42,688 bases of DNA from Patescibacteria group bacterium. Lineage in GTDB: Bacteria; Patescibacteriota; Minisyncoccia; Phycocordibacterales; VMEP01. The position numbers and the translations under genes are program-made. Location of the stretch: NCBI GenBank assembly GCA_038063255.1, contig JBBTVL010000015.1, positions 1 through 42,688 of the forward strand, given 5' to 3'. A model generated the notes under the pieces. It was not told where the DNA came from, did no database searches, and worked only from the letters and a program-made list of their open reading frames with translations. Each line of letters starts with the position of its first letter. Positions within the stretch are counted from its first letter, which is position 1. Positions 2,352 to 16,808 of this stretch are shown here, piece by piece.

Positions 2352-2488
2352 TCATAAAATGGCCTTGACAAGTTGACATTTTTATGTAAGTATTGTAATT
2401 GGATAAACAACCCCAAGGAGAAAAGGGGTTTAGTACCTTAAAACATGTAGTAAGAATTACCCTTTCCAACAACCTTCGAGAGATAACC

Positions 2489-3631
2489 ATGAAAACCGAA
2501 AAAGAAACAAGTACGGGTAGCACCGCGATATCAATCGCTTTCGCGTCTGCAAAGCCGTTTCCCGCCAAAAAGTCGGCATTGCTTTCCGTCAAGGGTGGTG
2601 ACGGGCTCAACTTTCCGACTATCGTCAAGCCGAAGCCCGGTGCCGCCGATGAGTTCCGCGAGCACCGGCAGAAGGTCAGGCAGTTCGCGGGCGACGCGAT
2701 CGATGCGCTCCCCGAGCTCCGCAATTATGTCGCGGAACTCACGGCAATCGAGGGGTGGCAAGAAGACCCGAAGATCGAGGCCGAAGTCAGGTCCGCCAAC
2801 CTCCAGATCGTCGAGATCGAAAAGGTTCCGGCGGTAAGGGACCAGCTGTTGTACAAGATGGTTGAGCTGGCAAAAACCGGCGACGAGTTTCTGGCGGCGC
2901 TTCACTTCGGACAGACCGTTTCAGCCCGCGCCGAAGAGTACCAAGCGGGGCGGGAGCACAAGTACCCGCGTCTTAGGGAAATATCCGGTGAAGATATGAA
3001 GCAGTTCAACGAATCCGCGAGGGTCGAGGGCGGCAGGAGGGACAACAAAAAGTTCTTCCAGTACGCCACAACTTTTCGTGGCGCCGTGTTTCTGTATTTT
3101 GAGCCGGACGGCGGCTTTGGGAACGACACTCCGTTCCAGTCGAAGCTCAAGAAGCTGATTCAGGACCGCAGGGGGCAATTCGTCCAAGCGGAACTGGGTA
3201 CGCTTCAGGAGAAGGATGCCGGCGAAAAGGCCAAGATCGTGGAAATCATGAAAGACCCGCGGTTCAAGCCAATCTCCGTCCTCAAGGATAACATCGCTCC
3301 CGGTCTTTACTGGGCGCACGCGTCGGAGAGGAATTTGGAGGGGAGGTCGCGGCCGGAAGGATTGTCGGTCATTGAGGTGTACGAGAATCCCAGTAACAAC
3401 AGGGGAATCCTGTACTTCAAGGTGAAAGATGCTTACGGCAGCGACCGTGACTTTACCGAACTCATCGGCAAGTGGAGTGCGCCCATAGAAAGGACGCTTC
3501 ACGGCGTCGTGCCCGAACGGGTGCTCGACAAGCTTGACGGGGAAATGGGCGAGAAAGTGAAGAGATTCACCAACATGCTCTACAAGCGGTTCTTCCACGC
3601 CGCTCGCATTCCCCTGCCGGACTCGCGCTAA
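2489..3631 (+). CDS. Hypothetical protein (380 aa), G+C-rich island gene, no domain recognised
   Basis: The ORF-track ORF opens at TTG 2399; I chose the first ATG at 2489 (MKTEKETS...). Long uninterrupted frame followed by strong hairpins. Confidence 0.6.
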   Translation: MKTEKETSTGSTAISIAFASAKPFPAKKSALLSVKGGDGLNFPTIVKPKPGAADEFREHRQKVRQFAGDAIDALPELRNYVAELTAIEGWQEDPKIEAEVRSANLQIVEIEKVPAVRDQLLYKMVELAKTGDEFLAALHFGQTVSARAEEYQAGREHKYPRLREISGEDMKQFNESARVEGGRRDNKKFFQYATTFRGAVFLYFEPDGGFGNDTPFQSKLKKLIQDRRGQFVQAELGTLQEKDAGEKAKIVEIMKDPRFKPISVLKDNIAPGLYWAHASERNLEGRSRPEGLSVIEVYENPSNNRGILYFKVKDAYGSDRDFTELIGKWSAPIERTLHGVVPERVLDKLDGEMGEKVKRFTNMLYKRFFHAARIPLPDSR

Positions 3632-3649
3632 AAACGCGAATGCAGTTTT

Positions 3650-3709
3650 CCGCCGCGGCAAGTAAAACTTGCCGCGGCGGATGAAGGGGGGCTCGTACTC
3701 CCCTTTTTT
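3650..3709 (+). terminator. Double hairpin terminator after the 380-aa gene
   Basis: 13-bp perfect stem ccgccgcggcaag/cttgccgcggcgg (3650-3680), then a gggg...cccc hairpin followed by a T-run (to 3709). Confidence 0.6.
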
Positions 3710-3757
3710 GTTTTTTTCTGCTAGACTCACGCAAGACTTTGAAGAAGGAGGTGTATT

Positions 3758-4270
3758 ATGGCAAAAGGCCATGACAGGTGTCGGCCTCAGCCCGAGAAAC
3801 TTGTACTTCTCTGCGATGGTGGTATCCGTGTTGAGCCATTCAAACAAGGGTATCTGATTGACCTGTCTCGCATCAGAGAAAGAGCGAGCTCCATCGCCCC
3901 GATAGCGTTGTCGTTCATGTTCGATTACCAAGACGGGCTCTATGAGCACCGAATCAGGAATCTCTACGACGAAAACTTCTTTTACATTACCTGTCCGAGA
4001 ATCCAAGAGGCCCAGAAAAATAAAGACAAGACAGACTGGGTTCTTAGCAAGTTCGGGTACATAGCTATTCCTCTCATGCCGGAGATTACCGATGTGGTCA
4101 TAGTTGCGAACGACGGAGACTTTGTTCCGCTTGTATCGCTTCTTAAGGACCACGGGAAGAGAGTAACCCTCTTTTACTACAAGAAACCTGCTGAGGGATA
4201 CTATTCCGTTCTTGGCAAGGAAATGATGTTCGATATCGCTGATTTCGGGCTAACGGCACAGCCGACCTAG
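3758..4270 (+). CDS. NYN/LabA-like (PIN-fold) nuclease-domain protein
   Basis: 170 aa with AGGAGG 6 nt upstream. LVLLCDGG near the N-terminus and VVIVANDGDFVPLVSLLKDHGKRV match the NYN acidic-residue pattern. Confidence 0.65.
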   Translation: MAKGHDRCRPQPEKLVLLCDGGIRVEPFKQGYLIDLSRIRERASSIAPIALSFMFDYQDGLYEHRIRNLYDENFFYITCPRIQEAQKNKDKTDWVLSKFGYIAIPLMPEITDVVIVANDGDFVPLVSLLKDHGKRVTLFYYKKPAEGYYSVLGKEMMFDIADFGLTAQPT

Positions 4271-6719: not shown

Positions 6720-7229
6720 TCACTTACGACGAATGGTCAAAAACCTGGTCAGGGGATATGAAGGCAAAATTCTTTCTGCCACAATTTCCCCAAAATCTCT
6801 CCATTCGGGAAAGTAGGCGTCACCAGAAATGGGCTTATTTCCTCCGATGATGGTAAGGTACATAATTTTCACTTGGGGTAGAAACGCGCGATATATTTCC
6901 GCACCCCCACCGACAAAAATCGTTTTACTTTTCAATTTGTCGGCGTATTCGTATCCCCAAGCCAACGCTCTCTCAACCGAACATGCGAGAGTAACACCAT
7001 TTGGAACTTGCGATAGCGTTTTACTTACAACAATTAGCTTCCGCCCCGGGAGTTTTCCAGGAAGTGATTCCCATGTTTTTCTGCCGAAGATAATCGGTTT
7101 GCCCATTGTCAGTTCACGGAAATTTTTCATATCTTCCGGCGATTTCCACGGCAATCGACCGTTGCTCCCGATAATTCCTGTCGTCTCATGAAGCGCGGCG
7201 ATTATTGCAACTTGCGGTTTTTGCATCAC
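6720..7229 (-). CDS. folA: Dihydrofolate reductase
   Basis: 169 aa with VAIIAAL....IG..G.LPW....D...F...T.G..II.GRKT.ES and VGGG.IY motifs. Confidence 0.85.
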   Translation of the reverse strand: MMQKPQVAIIAALHETTGIIGSNGRLPWKSPEDMKNFRELTMGKPIIFGRKTWESLPGKLPGRKLIVVSKTLSQVPNGVTLACSVERALAWGYEYADKLKSKTIFVGGGAEIYRAFLPQVKIMYLTIIGGNKPISGDAYFPEWRDFGEIVAERILPSYPLTRFLTIRRK

Positions 7230-7339
7230 ACGTCTCCCTTGAAAGAGTCTGTGTTAAAATTACCAGAGGCTTTACTTTTTGGCAATAAAAGTATAGAAGT
7301 AATGACAGTCTAGTTACTTCAAATTTGGAGGATTCCAAA

Positions 7340-7951
7340 ATGATTAACAAGGGAATATTTGGTCCTAGCGTTGAGCTAAAGGACCGCCTAAAAACGCTGG
7401 AAGAAATCGGTTCCTTAGCAGAACATTGCAGGGGGCTTGGCCTTAGAGTTTCGATGACCCAGGGAAGTTGGGATTTGTACCACGATGCCCACAAGAAGTA
7501 TCTTGCCAAGGCGCGTTCGTTTGGCGATCTCCTTATCGTGGGGGTCGACTCGGATGAGAAGATTCGTCACCGAAAAGGAAAAGACAGGCCGATGGTTCCT
7601 CAAGGAGAACGACTTGATCTTCTGGCGGGAAACCGCAGCGTCGACGTGGTGGTGCTCAAGGAGCTTAACCACGAGAAGTGGGCCCTCATCAAGGCGGTAC
7701 GGCCAGATGTTCTTATCGTTTCGGAGACGACGAGGAAAAATAAACCGATTCCGCAAGAGGAGATAGACGAGATTAAGCAGTATTGCGGTGAGATCGTCGT
7801 TCTTCCGGCCCAGGGGGAAACGACAACAAGCGCGCGTGTTGCCCACTTTACTCTCAATATTGGTAGACAAATAAAGAAAGCGCTCGAAGATTCGATTCCA
7901 GGAATCATAGAACGTGTCACAGGCCCTCTCGGCGAAGGGGAGGAAAGATGA
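7340..7951 (+). CDS. Cytidylyltransferase-family nucleotidyltransferase, HldE/RfaE domain-II-like
   Basis: GGAGG 7 nt upstream of ATG 7340. Has the GSWDLYHDAH (GxxDxxHxxH) signature, GDLLIVGVDSD, RPMVPQGER..LL and a C-terminal TTTS. The stop overlaps the next start (ATGA). Confidence 0.7.
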   Translation: MINKGIFGPSVELKDRLKTLEEIGSLAEHCRGLGLRVSMTQGSWDLYHDAHKKYLAKARSFGDLLIVGVDSDEKIRHRKGKDRPMVPQGERLDLLAGNRSVDVVVLKELNHEKWALIKAVRPDVLIVSETTRKNKPIPQEEIDEIKQYCGEIVVLPAQGETTTSARVAHFTLNIGRQIKKALEDSIPGIIERVTGPLGEGEER

Positions 7952-8817
7952 AAATCTTAATTCTGTACATGCCAGTGCTCCACAAGGGCTACCTTGATCT
8001 CTTCGACCGCGTGAAGCCGGAAGTAATCGCGCTTCTCACGGAAGAAGTGCTTCGGGATCTGCCTGAAGGACTCTCCTACATCGCTAAGAAGGATTCGATT
8101 CGTGCAGTGCCTTCCAAAGAGATGTGGGTGGCGGTTTCATCGTTGTTTTCTTCGCAAGAAGTCACTGTAATGCGCGCTACGGTTGCCGATATTTCCTCGC
8201 TTGGTGGAAATTCTCATCAGATACTCATGCCCGACGAGGACGTCAGTCTGTCGGTGGCGGAGAAGTATTTCGGTGTAGGAAGGGTAACATTTGTCACCCC
8301 GCCGTCACGACTTCGCTATCACCGGAATAACGTCGAGGAAAAGAAACTTCTGGTGCCCGACCGCCGTCTCCCGCTCAGTAATCTTGACCGAGAAATGATG
8401 GCCATTGTGGGCAAAGCTTCCGAGCGGAGTCCGGACTGGTGGCGGCAGGTGGGCGGCGTGCTCGTTACCCCGGATGGCCGCAGTATCGTCGCCTACAACG
8501 AGCATCAGCCGCACGAACAGATCGCGGCAACTCTCGGCGATCCGCGCAGCATTTTCAAAAGCGGGGTGCGAACGGATCTTTCAAATGCCGAGCACGTGGA
8601 GCGCATAGTCATTGGCGAAGCCGCGCGGCAGAAGATCGGAACCGACAACTCGATTTTGTACCTCACGACGTTCCCATGTCTTCCGTGCGCCCATCTTATG
8701 GCTCGCGCTGGCGTAAAACGCCTTTTCTACCGCGACCCATCGTATGGACTTCTCGACGCCGACGAGTTCCTTCGTGGCAAGGAAATAGAGCTCATCGAAG
8801 TCTCTGATGGAACATGA
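7948..8817 (+). CDS. Fusion protein: unknown ~140-aa N-domain plus dCMP/cytidine-deaminase-fold domain
   Basis: C-terminal half has the zinc motifs HVE (in NAEHVERIVIGEA) and PCLPC, plus VGGVLV..DG..V..NE. The N-terminal half was not recognised. Confidence 0.7.
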   Translation: MKILILYMPVLHKGYLDLFDRVKPEVIALLTEEVLRDLPEGLSYIAKKDSIRAVPSKEMWVAVSSLFSSQEVTVMRATVADISSLGGNSHQILMPDEDVSLSVAEKYFGVGRVTFVTPPSRLRYHRNNVEEKKLLVPDRRLPLSNLDREMMAIVGKASERSPDWWRQVGGVLVTPDGRSIVAYNEHQPHEQIAATLGDPRSIFKSGVRTDLSNAEHVERIVIGEAARQKIGTDNSILYLTTFPCLPCAHLMARAGVKRLFYRDPSYGLLDADEFLRGKEIELIEVSDGT

Positions 8818-8887
8818 TTCAAGCGGCCTTAGCGGGTCGCTTTTTTTTGCATAAAAAAATCCCCCGGTTGGTTTCCGGGAGATGAAT

Positions 8888-9352
8888 CTATTTCGCTTTG
8901 TAGCCGAGCTTGACGCGGAGTGCTTCACCTTCTTTCCCGCCGCCGAAAATGAGTTGGGCATGGAAGTGGGAGATGGAAGCACCAGTGAAGTCGGTGTCGC
9001 CGAAGCGGAAGAAGAATCCGCCCGCAGGCAACCTATACTCTTCAATAGCCCATTCGATGAGCACCCCGAGGTCCTGCCATGCTTCCGGTGGTAAGTTGGG
9101 AAAGAGCACATGTCTTTCTTCGTCGAAGAATTTACTGACTATGAGGAAGTGCTTTTCAGCCCCCTCATATTTCGGGAAGCTTTCAGTGAAAGCCCAGTGC
9201 TCGGTTTCCTTGATGACGGGGTTGGGGTGATAGGTCGGCGACTTCCCTTGGCAAAAGTCAACGCAGAAGGAACACACCCTATCTCCCTGTATCCGCTCGT
9301 ACAACCTTCGCTGCTCTTCCGTGCGCGCATGGCGCATGTTCACTTCTGGCAT
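8888..9352 (-). CDS. HIT-superfamily protein, GalT/Apa branch (HxHxQ) single-repeat
   Basis: 154 aa with ISHFHAQLIF (H-x-H-x-Q rather than HxHxH) and an N-terminal CSFC. AAGGAGG lies 4 nt upstream and overlaps the stop of the upstream TS-fold gene. Confidence 0.6.
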   Translation of the reverse strand: MPEVNMRHARTEEQRRLYERIQGDRVCSFCVDFCQGKSPTYHPNPVIKETEHWAFTESFPKYEGAEKHFLIVSKFFDEERHVLFPNLPPEAWQDLGVLIEWAIEEYRLPAGGFFFRFGDTDFTGASISHFHAQLIFGGGKEGEALRVKLGYKAK

Positions 9353-9361
9353 AGCGCCTCC

Positions 9362-10276
9362 TTATGGGCTGACCGGAATGTCTTTTATTGCCGGATACGG
9401 ATGGTAATTCGCGACCTCAAAGTGCTCCTTGCGGAACGCGAAGAAGTCATCCGGCGGGTTTTTGAGCGTCACGGTCGGGAATGGCCGCGGCTCGCGAGAG
9501 ATTATTTCTTCAAGCACTCCCCTTTGGTTCTCGTAGTAATGAGCGTTGAGATATACGATGCTCATCTTTCCTGGTTCGTACCCAAGGACATGACAAAACG
9601 CGAGCCAAAATGCGGAAAACATCAGTCGATCGTGCGCTTCTCCGACGACCATGTCGGCTGAGCGCATCACCATCTCGAGATGAAGTTTCCCATCGAGGAC
9701 GAAGATGTTGATCACCGTGCCCCAACAGGGGACTGTCACCACCATTTGACGCTTGCCTTTCCCTCGGAAAATTCCCGGAGGGTAGAGCGTGGTCATAGTG
9801 TGGGTTTTCAAATGGGGCAGTTCCCGAACTTGGTCGATGACAGCCTGGATCTGGTTGAACATCGTTCCATCATGGGCGGGGAAGTCATGCAGGACTACGT
9901 AGCTCGCCGGCCCTAGATCTCCCTGCGCCAGACCGCGCTTTTCGCACTTCCTCGGATCCTCGAACGTTGAGTTCCAGAATGGGACTTGCCAGTCCCGATT
10001 GAGTTCGTTGTTCATCCGCACGCCATTAGCGAGCGCGAACCCTTCATTGATGCTCGCCTTGCCGATTTGCCGGCAGGTTTCCATGGGGCAACCGTTCTTG
10101 ATGTCATAGACATGCGAAATGGCGAATGGCAGACTGTACGTCGCCCGTTCGGTTTCCCCGGCTTTCTTGCTTTGCTGGGTTTCCGAACGGATGCCTTCGC
10201 GAAGAAGGCGTATGCACAGACTGCGAAATTGCATATCTGGCACCCGTTCTTTATACATCAAGTATGCAATGTTCAT
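9362..10276 (-). CDS. Thymidylate-synthase-fold enzyme, divergent (deoxycytidylate hydroxymethylase/methylase-like)
   Basis: 304 aa. GDLGP, VPCW (nucleophile Cys), DGKLHLEMVMRSADMVVG, NAHYY and ISREPRPFP align by eye with ThyA. Asp sits at the ThyA Asn177 position. Confidence 0.75.
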   Translation of the reverse strand: MNIAYLMYKERVPDMQFRSLCIRLLREGIRSETQQSKKAGETERATYSLPFAISHVYDIKNGCPMETCRQIGKASINEGFALANGVRMNNELNRDWQVPFWNSTFEDPRKCEKRGLAQGDLGPASYVVLHDFPAHDGTMFNQIQAVIDQVRELPHLKTHTMTTLYPPGIFRGKGKRQMVVTVPCWGTVINIFVLDGKLHLEMVMRSADMVVGEAHDRLMFSAFWLAFCHVLGYEPGKMSIVYLNAHYYENQRGVLEEIISREPRPFPTVTLKNPPDDFFAFRKEHFEVANYHPYPAIKDIPVSP

Positions 10277-10368: not shown

Positions 10369-11913
10369 ATGATGAGAGAGACTATTAAGGATGCGCTTAA
10401 AGGAGCGGTTCCGCATGTGATGCCCGAAGTGATGTTTTCGGAGGGGAATAAAAACGGTCACCTCACTACTAATTGCGCTCTTATATCAGCAAAAGTAACG
10501 GGGATATCGCCACTCGAATTGGCAGAGAAGATAAAGGGGGAGATTGAACCGAAGCTTAAGGGTGTTATTGAACGCATTGAAATTGCCGGCCCCGGTTTCA
10601 TCAATTTTTTTCTGAAAGACGAAGCGATTATAAATGAACTTAAAGAAGTTGAGAAAAAAATAAAAAAAGGATTTGATTTTAGAAAGGGGGAGAAAATAAA
10701 TATTGAATTTATTTCCGCCAATCCGACCGGCGAACTTCACATCGGCCACGGCCGAGGCGCTTTTTACGGCGACACAATCGCAAACATCTTGGAATTTTCG
10801 GGCGCCAAAGTAACGCGCGAATACTATATAAACGATTCTCGCGAGAGCAATCAGATAAAAGAACTTGGTAAAACCGCCCTTGGAATGGGGGAGACATATC
10901 TTACCGAAAAATTAAAAAAACAAATTTCAAAACTTAAAATAGGGTTAAGTGATGCTGGCGAAGCGGGATTTAAATTGGCTCTAGTTATACAAAAAGACAA
11001 CAAAGAATTTATAGAAAAGAAACTCGGCATAAGATTTGACGAGTGGTATTCAGAAGATGAAAAATTACGTGCGTCAAAACTCAACGACCGCACATTTCTT
11101 GCTCTTAAAATGAAAGAGTTAGTTTATGAAAAAGATGGGGCTATGTGGCTTAAAACTTTAGAATATGGCGATGATGAAGACAGGGTTGTAGTACGTTCCG
11201 ATGGAACGAACAGTTATTTTCTTTCCGATATTTCTTATCATAGTGAAAAATTCTTGCGTGGTTATGACGTAGTGATTAATGTTTGGGGGGCGGACCACCA
11301 TGGGCATGTAAAACGAATGGAGGCAGTGAAGAAAATGCTCGGATGGAAGGGGGATTTAAAAATTTTTATTACGCAATTGGTTTCGCTTAAAGATGGCAAG
11401 ATGTCGAAGCGTGCGGGTAATGTAATTTTACTTAGAGATTTAGTTAATGAATTTGGCCTTGACGTAGTTCGATGGTTCTTTAGTGAAAAAGCGCTGACCA
11501 CTCACATGGAATTTGATGCTGTGCGTGCTAAAGAACAATCAGAAAAAAATCCCGTATTTTATGTGCAGTATGCTCATGCTCGCATGAATTCTATTTTAGA
11601 AAAAGCCAAAGATTTTAAAAAAGATAACACTACAATCTTGGAAGTGGTGAAAATTCCATCCGCTCGCGCCCTCGCGTTAAAATTGGCTCAACTGGAAGAA
11701 ATTATTGAATCAATTGTGGAAGAATATCAAGTACAAAAATTAACCACTTATGCATATGAACTTGCTACCGTTTTTTCACAATTTTATCGCGACGTGCGAG
11801 TGATAGAAGAAACTTCTTATAACAACGGCGCCCTTGAAATGATTGAAACGACAAAAAATGTTTTGGCAAAATCCCTCTCGCTTCTTGGAATTTCCGCGCC
11901 AAATAAAATGTGA
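10369..11913 (+). CDS. argS: Arginine--tRNA ligase
   Basis: 514 aa with SANPTGELHIGHGRG (HIGH) and GKMSKRAGN. Confidence 0.9.
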   Translation: MMRETIKDALKGAVPHVMPEVMFSEGNKNGHLTTNCALISAKVTGISPLELAEKIKGEIEPKLKGVIERIEIAGPGFINFFLKDEAIINELKEVEKKIKKGFDFRKGEKINIEFISANPTGELHIGHGRGAFYGDTIANILEFSGAKVTREYYINDSRESNQIKELGKTALGMGETYLTEKLKKQISKLKIGLSDAGEAGFKLALVIQKDNKEFIEKKLGIRFDEWYSEDEKLRASKLNDRTFLALKMKELVYEKDGAMWLKTLEYGDDEDRVVVRSDGTNSYFLSDISYHSEKFLRGYDVVINVWGADHHGHVKRMEAVKKMLGWKGDLKIFITQLVSLKDGKMSKRAGNVILLRDLVNEFGLDVVRWFFSEKALTTHMEFDAVRAKEQSEKNPVFYVQYAHARMNSILEKAKDFKKDNTTILEVVKIPSARALALKLAQLEEIIESIVEEYQVQKLTTYAYELATVFSQFYRDVRVIEETSYNNGALEMIETTKNVLAKSLSLLGISAPNKM

Positions 11914-13286: not shown

Positions 13287-16200
13287 ATGAAACTAGAGGA
13301 AGAAATACTAAAATTTTGGCAAGAAAAGGGGATATTCAAAAAAACTTTAACTGAAAGGGCTTCCGGTAAAAAATTCGTATTTTACGACGGACCGCCCTTT
13401 GCTACCGGACTCCCTCATTACGGGCATATTTTGGCCGGAACTATCAAGGATGTCATTCCGCGCTATCAAACCATGCGCGGGCGATTTGTGCGCCGAGAGT
13501 GGGGCTGGGATTGTCATGGGCTTCCGCTTGAAAATATTATTGAAGAAGAACTAGGGCTCAAGCATAAGAAAGATATAGAAAAATTCGGCATTGAGAATTT
13601 TAATGATGCCGCCTCGCGCGCAGTACTTCGTTATGAAAATGACTGGAAAAAAATAATTCCTAAAACCGGGCGTTTCGTGGATATGGAGAATCCCTACAAA
13701 ACAATGGACGCCACATACACGGAATCCGTCTGGTGGTCCTTCAAAACTCTTTATGACAAAGGGCTGATATACGAAGGGCATAAAATAATGCTGGTGTGTC
13801 CGCGCTGTGAGACCACTCTTGCTCAGAGTGAAGTCGCTTTGGGCGGGTACCACGATGTTACTGATATTTCGGTGATAGTGAAATTTGAACTTATTGATGA
13901 GCCAGGAACATTTCTTTTGGCGTGGACGACGACACCGTGGACATTGCCTGGGAACACAGCCCTTGCGGTAAACAAGAATGTTGAATATGTAAAAGTCAGT
14001 ATCAAAAATTATCAGAATGTTCCTGATGGAATATATATATTTTCTAAAAAAGATTACGAAGATTATAAAAAAGAAATTGACAACGAAAAAAATAGAGAGA
14101 TAAAAACAAAGGTTGATATTTTAAAAACTTTCAAGGGAAGCGAACTTGTTGGTAAATCTTATATTCCTCCGTTTGATTATTTTTATAAAGATGAAAAAAT
14201 AAAAAATCACAAAAACGGATGGAAAGTTTATCATGCTGATTTTGTTACGACGGAAACCGGAACCGGAATCGCCCATGAGGCGCCGGCCTTCGGCGAAGAC
14301 GATATGCAACTCGCGCTCAAAAACAACATTCCCATTGTTCAGCATGTAGGAATGGATGGCAAAATGAAAAACGAAGTCAAAGATTTTCGCGGTTTATATG
14401 TAAAACAAAAGGGCGATACTCAGTCAACCGACATTGAAATTGTAAAATATCTCGCCCAAAAAGAACTTCTCTTTGCCAAAGAAAAAGTGGTGCACCCATA
14501 TCCTCTCTGCTGGCGCTGCGACACGCCGCTTTTAAACTATGCAACAAATTCATGGTTTGTTAAAGTAACGGATTTTAAGGACAAGCTGATAAGAGAAAAC
14601 AAAAAAATCGTCTGGGTGCCAGCGCACATGCGAGATGGCCGTTTCGGTAAATGGCTCGAAGCGGCCAAGGATTGGGCGATTTCGCGAACTCGTTTTTGGG
14701 GCGCACCCCTTCCGGTCTGGCGCTGTGAAAAATGTAAAAAAATTGAAATTATTGGAAGTTTAGGTGAACTTCAGAAATCAATACCTAAAAGCGGAAATAA
14801 ATATTTTGTTATGCGACATGGGCAAGCTGAGAGCAATATTTCTGGTACTAACGATTCCACAGGCAACCCGAATAATCATCTAACCGAGAATGGGCGAGAA
14901 AGTATACGGCGTTTTGCTAAAGAATTTTCTAAAAAAGGGATAACTCGTATTATGACTTCACCGTTCGCTCGTGCTAAGGAAAGCGCAGAAGTTATCGCAC
15001 ACGAACTTGGACTCCCGGAACAAAATATCTTGTCCGACCAACGATTGATTGAATTTAATCACGGCTCCGACCGTCAGGGTAAAAAAATAAGTAACAATAA
15101 TCCAGAACCATTTAATGAAAATGATCTTTATATTCGCCATGATGACGGTGAGAGCCACGCAGAGGTTAGATCACGGGTAGTTTCGGTGATATTTGATATG
15201 GAAAAAACCTATAAAAATGAGACGATACTTATTGTTACCCATGGTTCTCCAATGTGGATGCTTATCACCGGGGCTTTAGGTATGAGTGACAAGGAAACAA
15301 TAAAATATCAGGAAGAACGCAAAAAAGACAATGGGGACTATTTTATTTCAAACGGCCAGATTGAGAAAATTGACTTTGTCCCGTTTCCCCATAACAAAGA
15401 GTACGAACTTGATTTTCACCGCCCGTATATAGACGAAGTGAAGCTATCTTGCACTTGCGGTGGAGAGATGGAGCGCATCAAAGATGTCTTTGACTGCTGG
15501 TTTGAATCTGGCTCCATGCCCTACGGGCAATTTCATTATCCTTTTGAGAACAAAAAAGTTTTTAAAGAAAATTTTCCCGCCGATTTCATCGCCGAAGGAC
15601 TGGATCAAACCCGCGGATGGTTTTACAGCATGATGGTACTTGGCGTTGCGCTTTTCGGCGAGACGCCGTTTAAGAATGTTATCGTGAATGGCCTTATTTT
15701 GGGCGAAGACGGCCAGAAGATGGCCAAAAAACTTAAGAATTATCCGGATGTGACGGAGTTGATTGAAAAATACGGCGCTGATGCGCTCCGTTATTATTTT
15801 CTCTCGTTACCGGTAATGCGCGGAGAAGACATTGCTTTCTCGGAAAAGGGAATTAGTGATGTCTATAAGAAGATTATATTACGGCTCCTTAATGTCTATA
15901 GTTTCTACAAAATGTATGCCCATGAACTTCGTTTTGAGGACTCGTTCAAGAAGAGCAAAAATGTACTGGACCAATGGATATTGTCGCGCCTTTCAGAATT
16001 ATCTATAGAGATGACGCGCGGAATGGATGCTTACGAGCTTGATGTTGCTGTGCGCGGAATTGAAAAATTTGTTGACGATTTTTCCACCTGGTACTTGCGC
16101 CGCTCCAGAGAAAGAGTGAAGGGAGATGATAAAGAGGACAAAGAAATGTCACTTTCGACCATCCGTTTTGTCCTTTTTGAATTTTCCAAATTAATCGCTC

Positions 16201-16808
16201 CCGCAATGCCGTTTGTTGCGGAAGATATTTATCAGAAAGTGAAAGGATTAAAAGATAAAGAAAGCGTGCATCTTGAAGCTTGGCCCGAAGCGGGGAAGAT
16301 TGATAAAAAAAATATCGCCAAAATGGAAACAACCAGGTGTCTTGTTGAGCTTGCCCTCGCCCTTCGCGCGGAGAAAGGAATAAAAGTGCGTCAGCCACTT
16401 GCCATTTTGGAAGTAAGCAAAGAGGAAGGTGAATTTTTTGAAGAACTAATTAGAGACGAGGTTAATGTTAAAAAAATCTTTGTGGGAGCATTTTCCAAGG
16501 GGGCGGTGACACTGGACACAAATATTACACCCGAACTCAAGGAAGAAGGACAGTTTCGCGACCTAACGCGAGCAATCCAAGAATTGCGTAAAAAAGAAAA
16601 ACTTACGCATCATGATGTCGTTTCATTTGTAATTGATACCGATACAAGGGGGCGGGAATTAATTTCAAAATTTGAAGTACAATTAAAAAAGGCGGTATCG
16701 GCGGACAAAATTGTGTTTGAAAAAAATAACGGCGAAGAAATATTGATTAACGATACTATTTTAAAAGTTTCGCTAAAAAATCCCATTAGAAGTTCAGAAA
16801 AATTATAG
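13287..16808 (+). CDS. ileS: Isoleucine--tRNA ligase with an internal histidine-phosphatase-like insertion
   Basis: 1173 aa with PHYGH (HIGH), an editing-domain region, WAISRTRFWGAPLPVW, CxxC pairs, FHRPYIDEV and KMAKKLKN (KMSKS-like). Confidence 0.9.
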   Translation: MKLEEEILKFWQEKGIFKKTLTERASGKKFVFYDGPPFATGLPHYGHILAGTIKDVIPRYQTMRGRFVRREWGWDCHGLPLENIIEEELGLKHKKDIEKFGIENFNDAASRAVLRYENDWKKIIPKTGRFVDMENPYKTMDATYTESVWWSFKTLYDKGLIYEGHKIMLVCPRCETTLAQSEVALGGYHDVTDISVIVKFELIDEPGTFLLAWTTTPWTLPGNTALAVNKNVEYVKVSIKNYQNVPDGIYIFSKKDYEDYKKEIDNEKNREIKTKVDILKTFKGSELVGKSYIPPFDYFYKDEKIKNHKNGWKVYHADFVTTETGTGIAHEAPAFGEDDMQLALKNNIPIVQHVGMDGKMKNEVKDFRGLYVKQKGDTQSTDIEIVKYLAQKELLFAKEKVVHPYPLCWRCDTPLLNYATNSWFVKVTDFKDKLIRENKKIVWVPAHMRDGRFGKWLEAAKDWAISRTRFWGAPLPVWRCEKCKKIEIIGSLGELQKSIPKSGNKYFVMRHGQAESNISGTNDSTGNPNNHLTENGRESIRRFAKEFSKKGITRIMTSPFARAKESAEVIAHELGLPEQNILSDQRLIEFNHGSDRQGKKISNNNPEPFNENDLYIRHDDGESHAEVRSRVVSVIFDMEKTYKNETILIVTHGSPMWMLITGALGMSDKETIKYQEERKKDNGDYFISNGQIEKIDFVPFPHNKEYELDFHRPYIDEVKLSCTCGGEMERIKDVFDCWFESGSMPYGQFHYPFENKKVFKENFPADFIAEGLDQTRGWFYSMMVLGVALFGETPFKNVIVNGLILGEDGQKMAKKLKNYPDVTELIEKYGADALRYYFLSLPVMRGEDIAFSEKGISDVYKKIILRLLNVYSFYKMYAHELRFEDSFKKSKNVLDQWILSRLSELSIEMTRGMDAYELDVAVRGIEKFVDDFSTWYLRRSRERVKGDDKEDKEMSLSTIRFVLFEFSKLIAPAMPFVAEDIYQKVKGLKDKESVHLEAWPEAGKIDKKNIAKMETTRCLVELALALRAEKGIKVRQPLAILEVSKEEGEFFEELIRDEVNVKKIFVGAFSKGAVTLDTNITPELKEEGQFRDLTRAIQELRKKEKLTHHDVVSFVIDTDTRGRELISKFEVQLKKAVSADKIVFEKNNGEEILINDTILKVSLKNPIRSSEKL
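14799..15390 (+). other. Histidine-phosphatase (PGAM-superfamily) domain inserted in frame in IleRS (about residues 505-700)
   Basis: YFVMRHGQAESN (RHG), TSPFARAKESAEVIA (SPxxRAxxTA-like) and LIVTHGSPM (second His). It lies between ...CEKCKKIEIIGSLGEL and DFHRPYIDEV. Confidence 0.7.

Follow-up and report, generated by a model that had tools for sequence, protein, structure and literature searches.

A chromosomal thymidylate synthase homologue of Patescibacteria with aspartate at the base-specificity position: a candidate dCMP methyltransferase with a matched deaminase gene

Which nucleotide is methylated by a thymidylate synthase (TS) whose residue at the position that decides between uracil and cytosine is aspartate instead of asparagine? 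This question is raised by a gene of a Patescibacteria group bacterium (assembly GCA_038063255.1, contig JBBTVL010000015.1, positions 1 to 42,688; this whole stretch of 42,688 nucleotides is referred to as the window). The gene (9362..10276, minus strand) starts with ATG and encodes a TS homologue of 304 amino acids, a start that was preferred over a 290-amino-acid call because the N-terminus of the longer protein agrees with the family consensus. From the data described below, we assign a probability of roughly 55% to the reading that the protein is a C5-methyltransferase of deoxycytidine monophosphate (dCMP) whose product would be deaminated to thymidylate. Such a pathway would parallel that of phage Xp12 but would be cellular and have evolved independently.

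The protein possesses the ThyA fold and belongs to the Pfam superfamily PF00303 (Thymidylat_synt; E=2.4e-33, 115.9 bits at a cutoff of 24.3, profile positions 2-262 of 266). An AlphaFold2 model calculated from 58 family sequences (predicted local distance difference test 93.2, predicted template modelling score 0.92) was most similar in Foldseek to ThyA of E. coli, M. tuberculosis and human, with target-normalised template modelling scores of 0.91-0.94 and E values of approximately 1e-25. None of its top 50 structural matches was a hydroxymethylase. The protein is annotated as 'thymidylate synthase' by NCBI, and its homologues carry the source names Minisyncoccia or Paceibacterota. All NCBIfam cutoffs for ThyA equivalogs were missed (best score 97.5 bits versus 327; TIGR03284, 77 versus 108), and the identity to E. 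coli ThyA is 24%.

For the assignment of single residues, the protein was aligned by phmmer/HMMER to ThyA chains of the Protein Data Bank (PDB) and by MAFFT to E. coli ThyA, whose reference sequence is identical to PDB 1aob at 264 of 264 positions. Both alignments agreed with the initial annotation, which had been based on an alignment by eye, in that Asp216 (GAT, 9629-9631) occupies the position of E. coli Asn177. A shift of the register cannot place an asparagine at this site since the motif GEAHDRLMF contains none. The catalytic residues listed earlier were recovered as well, namely Cys184 (9725-9727) for Cys146, Arg205-Ser206 for Arg166-Ser167, Asp208 for Asp169, and His246 and Tyr248 for His207 and Tyr209, and the proposed homology of the C-terminal SREPRPFP stretch to ThyA was borne out. 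The C-terminal tail is full and ThyA-like (...PAIKDIPVSP). Besides Asn177, the protein lacks a second residue of canonical ThyA, Gln165, which is replaced by Met204. Further correspondences are Trp185 for His147, Asn244 for Asp205, Trp101 for Trp80, Phe105 for Trp83 and Thr181 (VVTVPC) three residues ahead of the catalytic cysteine, while Glu213, His215 and Arg217 flank Asp216. Trp185 (9722-9724, TGG versus CAY for His) is the sole tryptophan at the His147 position among 160 family members; in a comparison of phage TS, position 147 ranked second among the residues that separate cytosine-modifying from canonical enzymes (PMC8670742).

Mutagenesis of the enzymes from E. coli, L. casei and T4 has established that an exchange of Asn and Asp at position 177 switches the preference for uracil or cytosine (Hardy & Nalivaika 1992; Liu & Santi 1992; Graves et al. 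1992; recounted in PMC8670742). According to the same source, Asp alone redirects methylation to dCMP in E. coli N177D and L. casei N229D (PDB 1NJC). The natural Asp-bearing homologues that have been tested so far are cytosine enzymes, and five of seven phage TS homologues with Asp, as well as the Xp12 enzyme, were reported to make 5-methyl-dCMP (bioRxiv 10.1101/2024.12.05.627091).

To place the protein in its family, homologues were gathered from a protein database (82), from genomes of GTDB species (80 loci retrieved of 355 relatives found) and from metagenomes (68 loci), the loci being viewed within 10 kb on either side of each TS match. The protein-database and GTDB sets yielded 160 full-length sequences that were aligned with E. 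coli ThyA; 117 have Asn177 while 43 constitute an Asp clade (loci L043 and L086, which show Asn when aligned, were counted as Asn loci). The alignment does not support the view that a lost phosphate clamp and an insertion signal a special phosphate or ribose requirement of the window protein. Of the four arginines forming the canonical phosphate site (Arg21, Arg166, Arg126' and Arg127'), only Arg166 has an arginine counterpart, the others being represented by Gln34, Lys157 and Thr158. The initial annotation had regarded both arginines of the Arg126-Arg127 pair as lost. This is correct for Arg127, but Arg126 is conservatively replaced by lysine (P-H-L-K-T-H versus P-D-S-R-R-I, Lys157-Thr158-His159 corresponding to Arg126-Arg127-Ile128), and the change of Arg21 to Gln34 had not been listed. 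The insertion ahead of the catalytic cysteine exists as well, though it comprises seven residues rather than about six and includes the nearly invariant Arg171. However, these features are common to the whole family. Thr is found at the Arg127 position in 158 of 160 sequences, His at the Ile128 position in all 160 and Gln at the Arg21 position in most, Arg171 has an arginine counterpart in 159 of 160 (followed by G-K-G-K), and Lys at position 126 occurs in 45 of the 117 Asn forms and is therefore non-discriminating. Since the 117 Asn forms reside in ordinary thymidylate neighbourhoods with genes for dUTPase, thymidylate kinase, dihydrofolate reductase (DHFR) and serine hydroxymethyltransferase (SHMT), the weakened arginine clamp and the insertion provide no evidence on the substrate of the window protein. 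Likewise, an altered ribose requirement is not indicated, as Ser206 is kept at the site where the main ribose determinant of MilA, the exchange of Ser167 for Ala (PMC5175136), is located. Arg171, His128 and the missing Arg21 and Arg127 (window 9764-9808 and 10175-10177) perhaps represent a rebuilt phosphate site in the entire family.

What distinguishes the window protein from most of its relatives is thus the Asp clade. Its 43 members, which are 55-76% identical, all contain Asp at position 177, and both codons are in use (GAT x2, GAC x5); the residue is real and not noise. The clade is rare. It was represented by a single sequence (505 bits) in a 50%-identity library of 1.84 billion proteins, where the next match scored 245 bits, and Asp-type genes were present in four of the 80 retrieved GTDB species loci. 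Glu58, Trp80, Tyr94, Cys146, Arg166, Ser167, Asp169, His207 and Tyr209 are 100% conserved in the 43 Asp forms, and this conservation of catalytic and folate-site residues predicts an active enzyme under selection. In addition to Asp177, there are approximately 50 fixed differences, among them Trp83 to Phe, Leu/Val143 to Thr, Asp205 to Asn, Glu174, His176, Arg178 and a Lys-rich insert of seven amino acids in the Arg21 loop.

The most telling of the accompanying changes concerns Gln165, which in ThyA structures supports the carboxamide of Asn177. Gln is invariant at this position in the Asn forms (117/117), whereas the Asp forms contain Trp (34), Phe (4), His (2), Met (1) or Gln (2). A release of Gln165 would be expected if the base-recognition network had changed its function. 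The two Asp forms that kept Gln165 are early-branching. In a bootstrapped neighbour-joining tree, the Asp clade nested inside Patescibacterial ThyA (bootstrap 100/100), and the Asp forms were grouped together with the Asn-bearing sequences P0040 and P0042 at 100/100, P0042 being basal and P0040 the sister of the Asp form P0037. P0040, P0042 and the metagenome lineage L097 combine the new scaffold (Phe83, Thr143, Asn205, His176) with Asn177 and Gln165, from which it follows that the scaffold changes preceded the exchange of Asn for Asp. The release of Gln165 appears to have come after this exchange. Among 149 next-best TS representatives, one further sequence (P0189), whose scaffold is different (LQRSGDLPIGVPFDIMQY), combines Asp177 with a retained Gln165. 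It may represent another independent switch from Asn to Asp.

A second line of evidence is provided by the neighbouring deaminase. The window contains at 7948..8817 (plus strand) a gene for a 'long' dCMP-deaminase-family protein of 289 amino acids, composed of an N-terminal domain of about 145 amino acids and a zinc deaminase domain (HVE ... PCLPC) that is closest to the dCMP deaminases of S. mutans, cyanophage, T4 and human. The subtype of this deaminase tracks residue 177 of the TS. The Asp-type subtype is characterised by PC-L-xC, Ala194 (window numbering) and a one-residue insert (DPSYG), and the residue after HxE is usually His but is Arg219 in the window. Deaminases linked to Asn forms have PC-P-xC instead. 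The Asp-type deaminase was present in 17 of 17 unique Asp loci and in none of 93 Asn loci. The transitional loci L092 and L097, whose TS has the Asp-like scaffold and Asn177, harbor an Asn-type deaminase. For the deaminase fragment of L092, the identity is 63% to the protein of a distant Asn-type genome but only 41-51% to Asp-type proteins, a pattern that is reversed for the TS of this locus. By contrast, the basal Asp lineage L093, in which Gln165 is kept, already possesses the Asp-type deaminase. Hence, the deaminase changed on the same branch as residue 177. A search for a locus of the P0040 lineage that includes a deaminase gene found none.

The TS and the deaminase are parts of a module that was found in more than 85 loci with TS of both types. 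It comprises the TS, a HIT-superfamily protein of about 150 amino acids, the long deaminase (280-290 amino acids) and a cytidylyltransferase-like protein, with or without genes for DHFR, SHMT, dUTPase and thymidylate kinase beside it. Within the conserved gene order, the Asp-type TS takes the place of the Asn-type ThyA, at the same locus and in the same module, and neither the retrieved loci nor the 42.7-kb window contain a second TS gene. In the window, the module is arranged in two convergent units. The gene for the HIT-superfamily protein (8888..9352, minus strand, 154 amino acids, CxFC ... HxHxQ/H) follows the TS gene after 9 bp and shares its leftward transcription unit, while the rightward unit consists of the gene for the cytidylyltransferase-like protein (7325..7951, plus strand, 208 amino acids, TagD/ECT-like, HxxH) and the deaminase gene, whose start it overlaps by 4 bp. 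Two terminator-like hairpins (8821-8842, plus strand; 8859-8883, minus strand) are located in the 70-bp gap between the units.

The four module genes (7325..10276) form a compositional island in which the G+C content at third codon positions (GC3) is 0.54-0.66, compared to 0.36-0.50 in the flanking housekeeping genes. The difference between module and flanks amounts to +0.15 in the window, +0.23 in L014 and +0.27 in L015, while it averages +0.011 (sd 0.057) in 67 Asn loci. In comparison with other Asp genomes, TS, HIT protein and deaminase of the window are 55-71% identical, but isoleucyl-tRNA synthetase (IleRS) only 38-51%, ribosomal protein L11 57-65% and arginyl-tRNA synthetase (ArgRS) 25%. 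The latter three proteins are no closer to those of Asp-type than to those of Asn-type genomes and often more distant. It therefore appears that TS, HIT protein and deaminase, at times together with the cytidylyltransferase-like protein, replaced the resident module in situ between divergent Patescibacteria. The DHFR gene adjoining the module (6720..7229, minus strand) has a native composition (GC3 0.44) and thus does not belong to the apparently transferred unit. The joint replacement of TS, HIT protein and deaminase suggests that an Asp-type TS needs its own deaminase.

Taken together, Asp at position 177, the release of Gln165 and the matched neighbouring deaminase lend support to the earlier prediction of a cytosine-nucleotide C5 transferase. 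In the reaction that we propose, Cys184 would attack C6 of dCMP, and Asp216 would read and protonate N3/N4 of the cytosine. Methylenetetrahydrofolate would give both the carbon and the hydride, leading to 5-methyl-dCMP and dihydrofolate, and the latter would be recycled by the neighbouring DHFR (plus SHMT in sister genomes). The co-inherited long deaminase would then convert the 5-methyl-deoxycytidine (5-methyl-dC) nucleotide to the thymidine nucleotide, an activity for which there is a precedent in phages, as dCMP-deaminase-family enzymes encoded in cis convert 5-methyl-dC to dT nucleotides (bioRxiv 10.1101/2024.12.05.627091). Thus, the same two enzyme families as in the Asn-type relatives might be used in reversed order, methylation first and deamination second. 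Which substrate is used, which product is formed and on which phosphorylated form the deaminase would act are all inferred from sequence and context. Whether the enzyme is a methylase or a hydroxymethylase had been left undecided by the initial annotation, and the data favour a methylase. The T4 dCMP hydroxymethylase signature deduced from a ternary complex consists of Asp three residues before the cysteine, the absence of the C-terminal tail and Val for Trp83 (PMC6400193). The window protein has the tail, Thr181 (Thr in 43 of 43 Asp forms) and, as in Xp12, Phe at position 83. Moreover, DHFR adjoins the TS in about nine Asp loci including the window, and SHMT does so in two more, a retention for which we see no other sense than the production of dihydrofolate. 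The preserved Ser206 (43/43) points to a deoxyribonucleotide as substrate.

Several observations weigh against a dCMP methyltransferase. His147, which is lost in phage cytosine enzymes (Pro in Xp12, Thr in T4), is kept in 39 of the 43 Asp forms, and a dUTPase gene adjoins the TS in three of 20 Asp loci (L014, L093, L103), which would fit a continued use of deoxyuridine monophosphate (dUMP). Throughout the clade, the Asp lies between Glu213 and Arg217, which could alter its behaviour. Most of the approximately 50 clade substitutions predate the exchange of Asn for Asp, so that the scaffold differences say nothing about the choice of the base. The coupling of TS and deaminase rests on one main Asp clade and two transitional lineages, i.e. 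on few independent events. Finally, mSCD-B5, the one phage partner deaminase that has been characterised, uses the triphosphate and not the monophosphate (bioRxiv 10.1101/2024.12.05.627091), which makes the order of steps given above provisional.

The first two of these observations also speak for the strongest alternative, an ordinary dUMP-methylating enzyme in which Asp is tolerated or compensated by Glu213, His215 and Arg217 while the deaminase supplies dUMP from dCMP. This explanation would agree with a locus and a module that are identical to those of the Asn-type orthologues, and with the label thymidylate synthase in the databases. However, the NCBIfam equivalog score is far below the cutoff (97 versus 327 bits), the mutagenesis of the E. 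coli, L. casei and T4 enzymes recounted in PMC8670742 demonstrated a uracil/cytosine switch at this very residue, and the tested natural homologues with Asp have the same preference for cytosine. The release of a glutamine invariant in 117 Asn forms and the change of the deaminase subtype along with residue 177 also speak against it. We therefore consider it rather unlikely. The evidence from dUTPase is a weak trend, since the gene is found beside the TS in approximately 30% of the Asn loci and in three of three transitional loci. In the early-branching P0037 lineage, the dUTPase beside the Asp-type TS (L093 896-1246, L094 721-1071) comprises 116 amino acids, compared to 140-175 elsewhere, and may be encoded by a decaying gene.

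It is also conceivable that 5-methyl-dCMP is mainly a DNA precursor, in which case much or all of the genomic cytosine would be converted to 5-methylcytosine (5mC) as in Xp12 and the deaminase would divert some 5-methyl-dCTP to dTTP. The trio of an Asp-type TS, a dCMP-deaminase-family protein and DHFR resembles that of Xp12, the characterised phage partner deaminase uses 5-methyl-dCTP, and the module behaves as a mobile unit. On the other hand, the gene replaces the housekeeping ThyA amid ribosomal-protein and tRNA-synthetase genes, nothing in the window resembles a dedicated 5-methyl-dCMP kinase or a dCTPase, and no member of the Asp clade was detected in IMG/VR viral contigs, where a pattern scan with the Asp-clade alignment found no relative; the best matches to phage TS are only about 25% identical. 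We know of no cellular organism for which bulk 5mC DNA has been reported. For these reasons, a role primarily in DNA modification is improbable. A phage origin of the TS was rejected because the only matches from a tblastn search of 50,697 phage records are about 25% identical and annotated as ordinary TS. Still more doubtful is the far-reaching scenario in which dUMP-dependent synthesis has been abandoned, all dT arises by deamination of 5-methyl-dC nucleotides, the DNA contains bulk 5mC in place of cytosine as in Xp12 and the three-gene module spreads this trait laterally among Patescibacteria.

An equally doubtful explanation, compatible with a dCMP methyltransferase, concerns the family as a whole, Asn and Asp forms alike. 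It assumes a nucleotidyl-linked or more highly phosphorylated deoxynucleotide as substrate, the carrier being loaded and unloaded by the cytidylyltransferase-like and HIT proteins. The family-wide changes of Arg21 to Gln, Arg127 to Thr and Ile128 to His, the new basic, Gly-rich insert and the near-universal linkage of the TS to both proteins, including domain fusions, could be understood in this way. But Arg166 and Ser167 are kept, position 126 is still basic, Arg171 could rebuild a monophosphate site, and dUTPase and thymidylate kinase genes in the same clusters fit ordinary dUMP/dTMP chemistry. Least probable is a dCMP or CMP hydroxymethylase serving DNA hypermodification or the synthesis of a nucleoside antibiotic such as mildiomycin or bacimethrin, since the resemblances on which it could be founded (Asp at position 177 as in T4 gp42, MilA and BcmA, Lys157 at Arg126' as in MilA and BcmA, and a change of both solvent-access residues of ThyA, Trp83 to Phe and Leu143 to Thr) are outweighed by the absence of the T4 signature, the retained Ser206 where ribo-specific enzymes have Ala, the presence of Lys126 in 45 of 117 Asn forms, the DHFR gene beside the TS, the nearest structures, which are ThyAs, and nearby genes in the window that include no glycosidase, kinase or transferase of such pathways.

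As a whole, the window looks like a usual piece of the chromosome of a Patescibacteria (candidate phyla radiation, CPR) bacterium, with genes for NusG, L11, ArgRS, IleRS, methionyl-tRNA synthetase, RecA, FtsK, SSB and the like; Rfam and tRNA scans of the window gave no matches. The linkage of TS, HIT protein, long deaminase and cytidylyltransferase-like protein (window 6720-10276; L001-L009, L012-L091) together with fusions of their domains resembles an undescribed thymidylate 'metabolon'. The fusions comprise DHFR-HIT (L007, L009), cytidylyltransferase-deaminase in an open reading frame (ORF) of 318 amino acids (L016, L025 and others) and cytidylyltransferase-HIT in an ORF of 488 amino acids (L080). 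For the N-terminal domain of the deaminase, Pfam found nothing even at E<=5, and the idea that it is a degenerate cytidylyltransferase (PVLHKGY versus HxGH) was dismissed at an hhalign probability of 0.1%. The IleRS (13287-16808, 1173 amino acids) contains a complete His_Phos_1 domain inserted at residues 507-671, as do its counterparts in L001, L003, L005 and L008. Two very different types of ArgRS apparently occupy the position next to the TS, since the protein encoded in the window (10369-11913) shares 61% identity with the ArgRS of L015 but only about 25% with its counterparts at the same position in most other loci with either TS type. Between nusG and rplK, there is a gene for a 23S rRNA intervening-sequence protein (PF05635; 5526-5897), whose GC content (0.31; GC3 0.28) is very low next to that of its neighbours. 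Two overlapping ORFs of 410 amino acids each on opposite strands (2399-3631, plus; 2921-4153, minus) have no Pfam match and lie in a stretch of raised GC content (0.52).

To our knowledge, all textbook routes to thymidylate in cells pass through dUMP, and only phages whose DNA contains 5mC have so far been proposed to use a route via 5-methyl-dCMP. In the literature, no paper on the Asp-type TS of Patescibacteria was found, and CPR papers mentioning thyA treat the gene as ordinary. If the proposed dCMP methylation is correct, a lineage of Patescibacteria would have swapped the order of two steps, with enzymes descended from its own ThyA and dCMP deaminase, and a dUMP-independent thymidylate route would exist in cells with its evolutionary intermediates preserved. 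The apparent intermediates in metagenomes would document a change of the TS scaffold with Asn177 retained, then the exchange of Asn for Asp along with a new deaminase, and then the loss of Gln165 and mostly of dUTPase. It would be an example of the rewiring of a pathway by one specificity residue and a co-adapted partner. Moreover, metabolic reconstructions would assign the wrong substrate to these genes, which are annotated just as 'thymidylate synthase', and dUMP analogues, for instance 5-fluoro-dUMP, would presumably not be recognised by the Asp-type TS. Deaminases selective for 5mC are of interest to biotechnology (bioRxiv 10.1101/2024.12.05.627091), and the partner deaminases are candidates for such enzymes.

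How does the window system compare with those already known? With the CMP hydroxymethylases MilA and BcmA, judged by published residue rules, the protein shares Asp at the specificity position and Lys at Arg126', but MilA and BcmA carry Ala instead of Ser206 and are encoded in antibiotic clusters together with an N-glycosidase. T4 gp42, the dCMP hydroxymethylase, also has Asp at this position and a residue other than Gln at position 165 (Met); unlike the window protein, it possesses Asp145 three residues before the cysteine, Val85, an intact Arg-Arg pair and no C-terminal tail, and BLASTP of gp42 against the window TS gave no significant match (E=0.38). E. coli ThyA (EC 2.1.1.45) has in common with it the fold, the catalytic cysteine, Glu58, Tyr94, Arg166-Ser167, Asp169, His207, Tyr209 and the C-terminal tail, whereas the window protein lacks two of the four arginines of the phosphate site as well as Gln165 and contains extra inserts. 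Much closer are the Asn-type ThyA proteins of Patescibacteria (P0045, P0053), which are 37-43% identical, are encoded at the orthologous position within the same module and also contain Lys/Arg-Thr-His for Arg-Arg-Ile, Gln at Arg21 and the insert of seven amino acids with Arg. They differ in having Asn177, Gln165, Trp83, Val143 and Asp205, in the absence of the Lys-rich insert of seven amino acids in the Arg21 loop, in the PC-P-xC subtype of their deaminase and in a dUTPase gene that is more often adjacent.

Functionally, the deoxycytidylate 5-methyltransferase of Xp12 and the MetaGPA phage pairs of an Asp-type TS and an mSCD deaminase come closest to the window system. Xp12 and the window have in common the ThyA fold, Asp at position 177, a residue other than Gln at position 165 (Leu in Xp12), Phe at position 83 and the trio of TS, deaminase and DHFR genes (Xp12 MT664984 44377-46195), as well as the proposed formation of dT by deamination of a 5-methyl-dC nucleotide, as Xp12 is thought to do. 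Two marks of an Xp12-type system, Asp177 on a scaffold with a folate site competent for hydride transfer and linked genes for a deaminase and DHFR, were found in the window. On the other hand, the two TS are only 29% identical over 124 amino acids, Xp12 keeps Arg21 and Arg126-Arg127 and has Pro at position 147, and the window gene is chromosomal, has as its partner a two-domain deaminase of 289 amino acids and belongs to a module that additionally includes a HIT and a cytidylyltransferase-like protein. The low identity to Xp12, the absence of relatives in IMG/VR and the nesting of the clade within Patescibacterial ThyA argue for an independent origin. The window TS would therefore be a convergent, cellular and chromosomal version of the Xp12-type system rather than a member of the phage group by descent.

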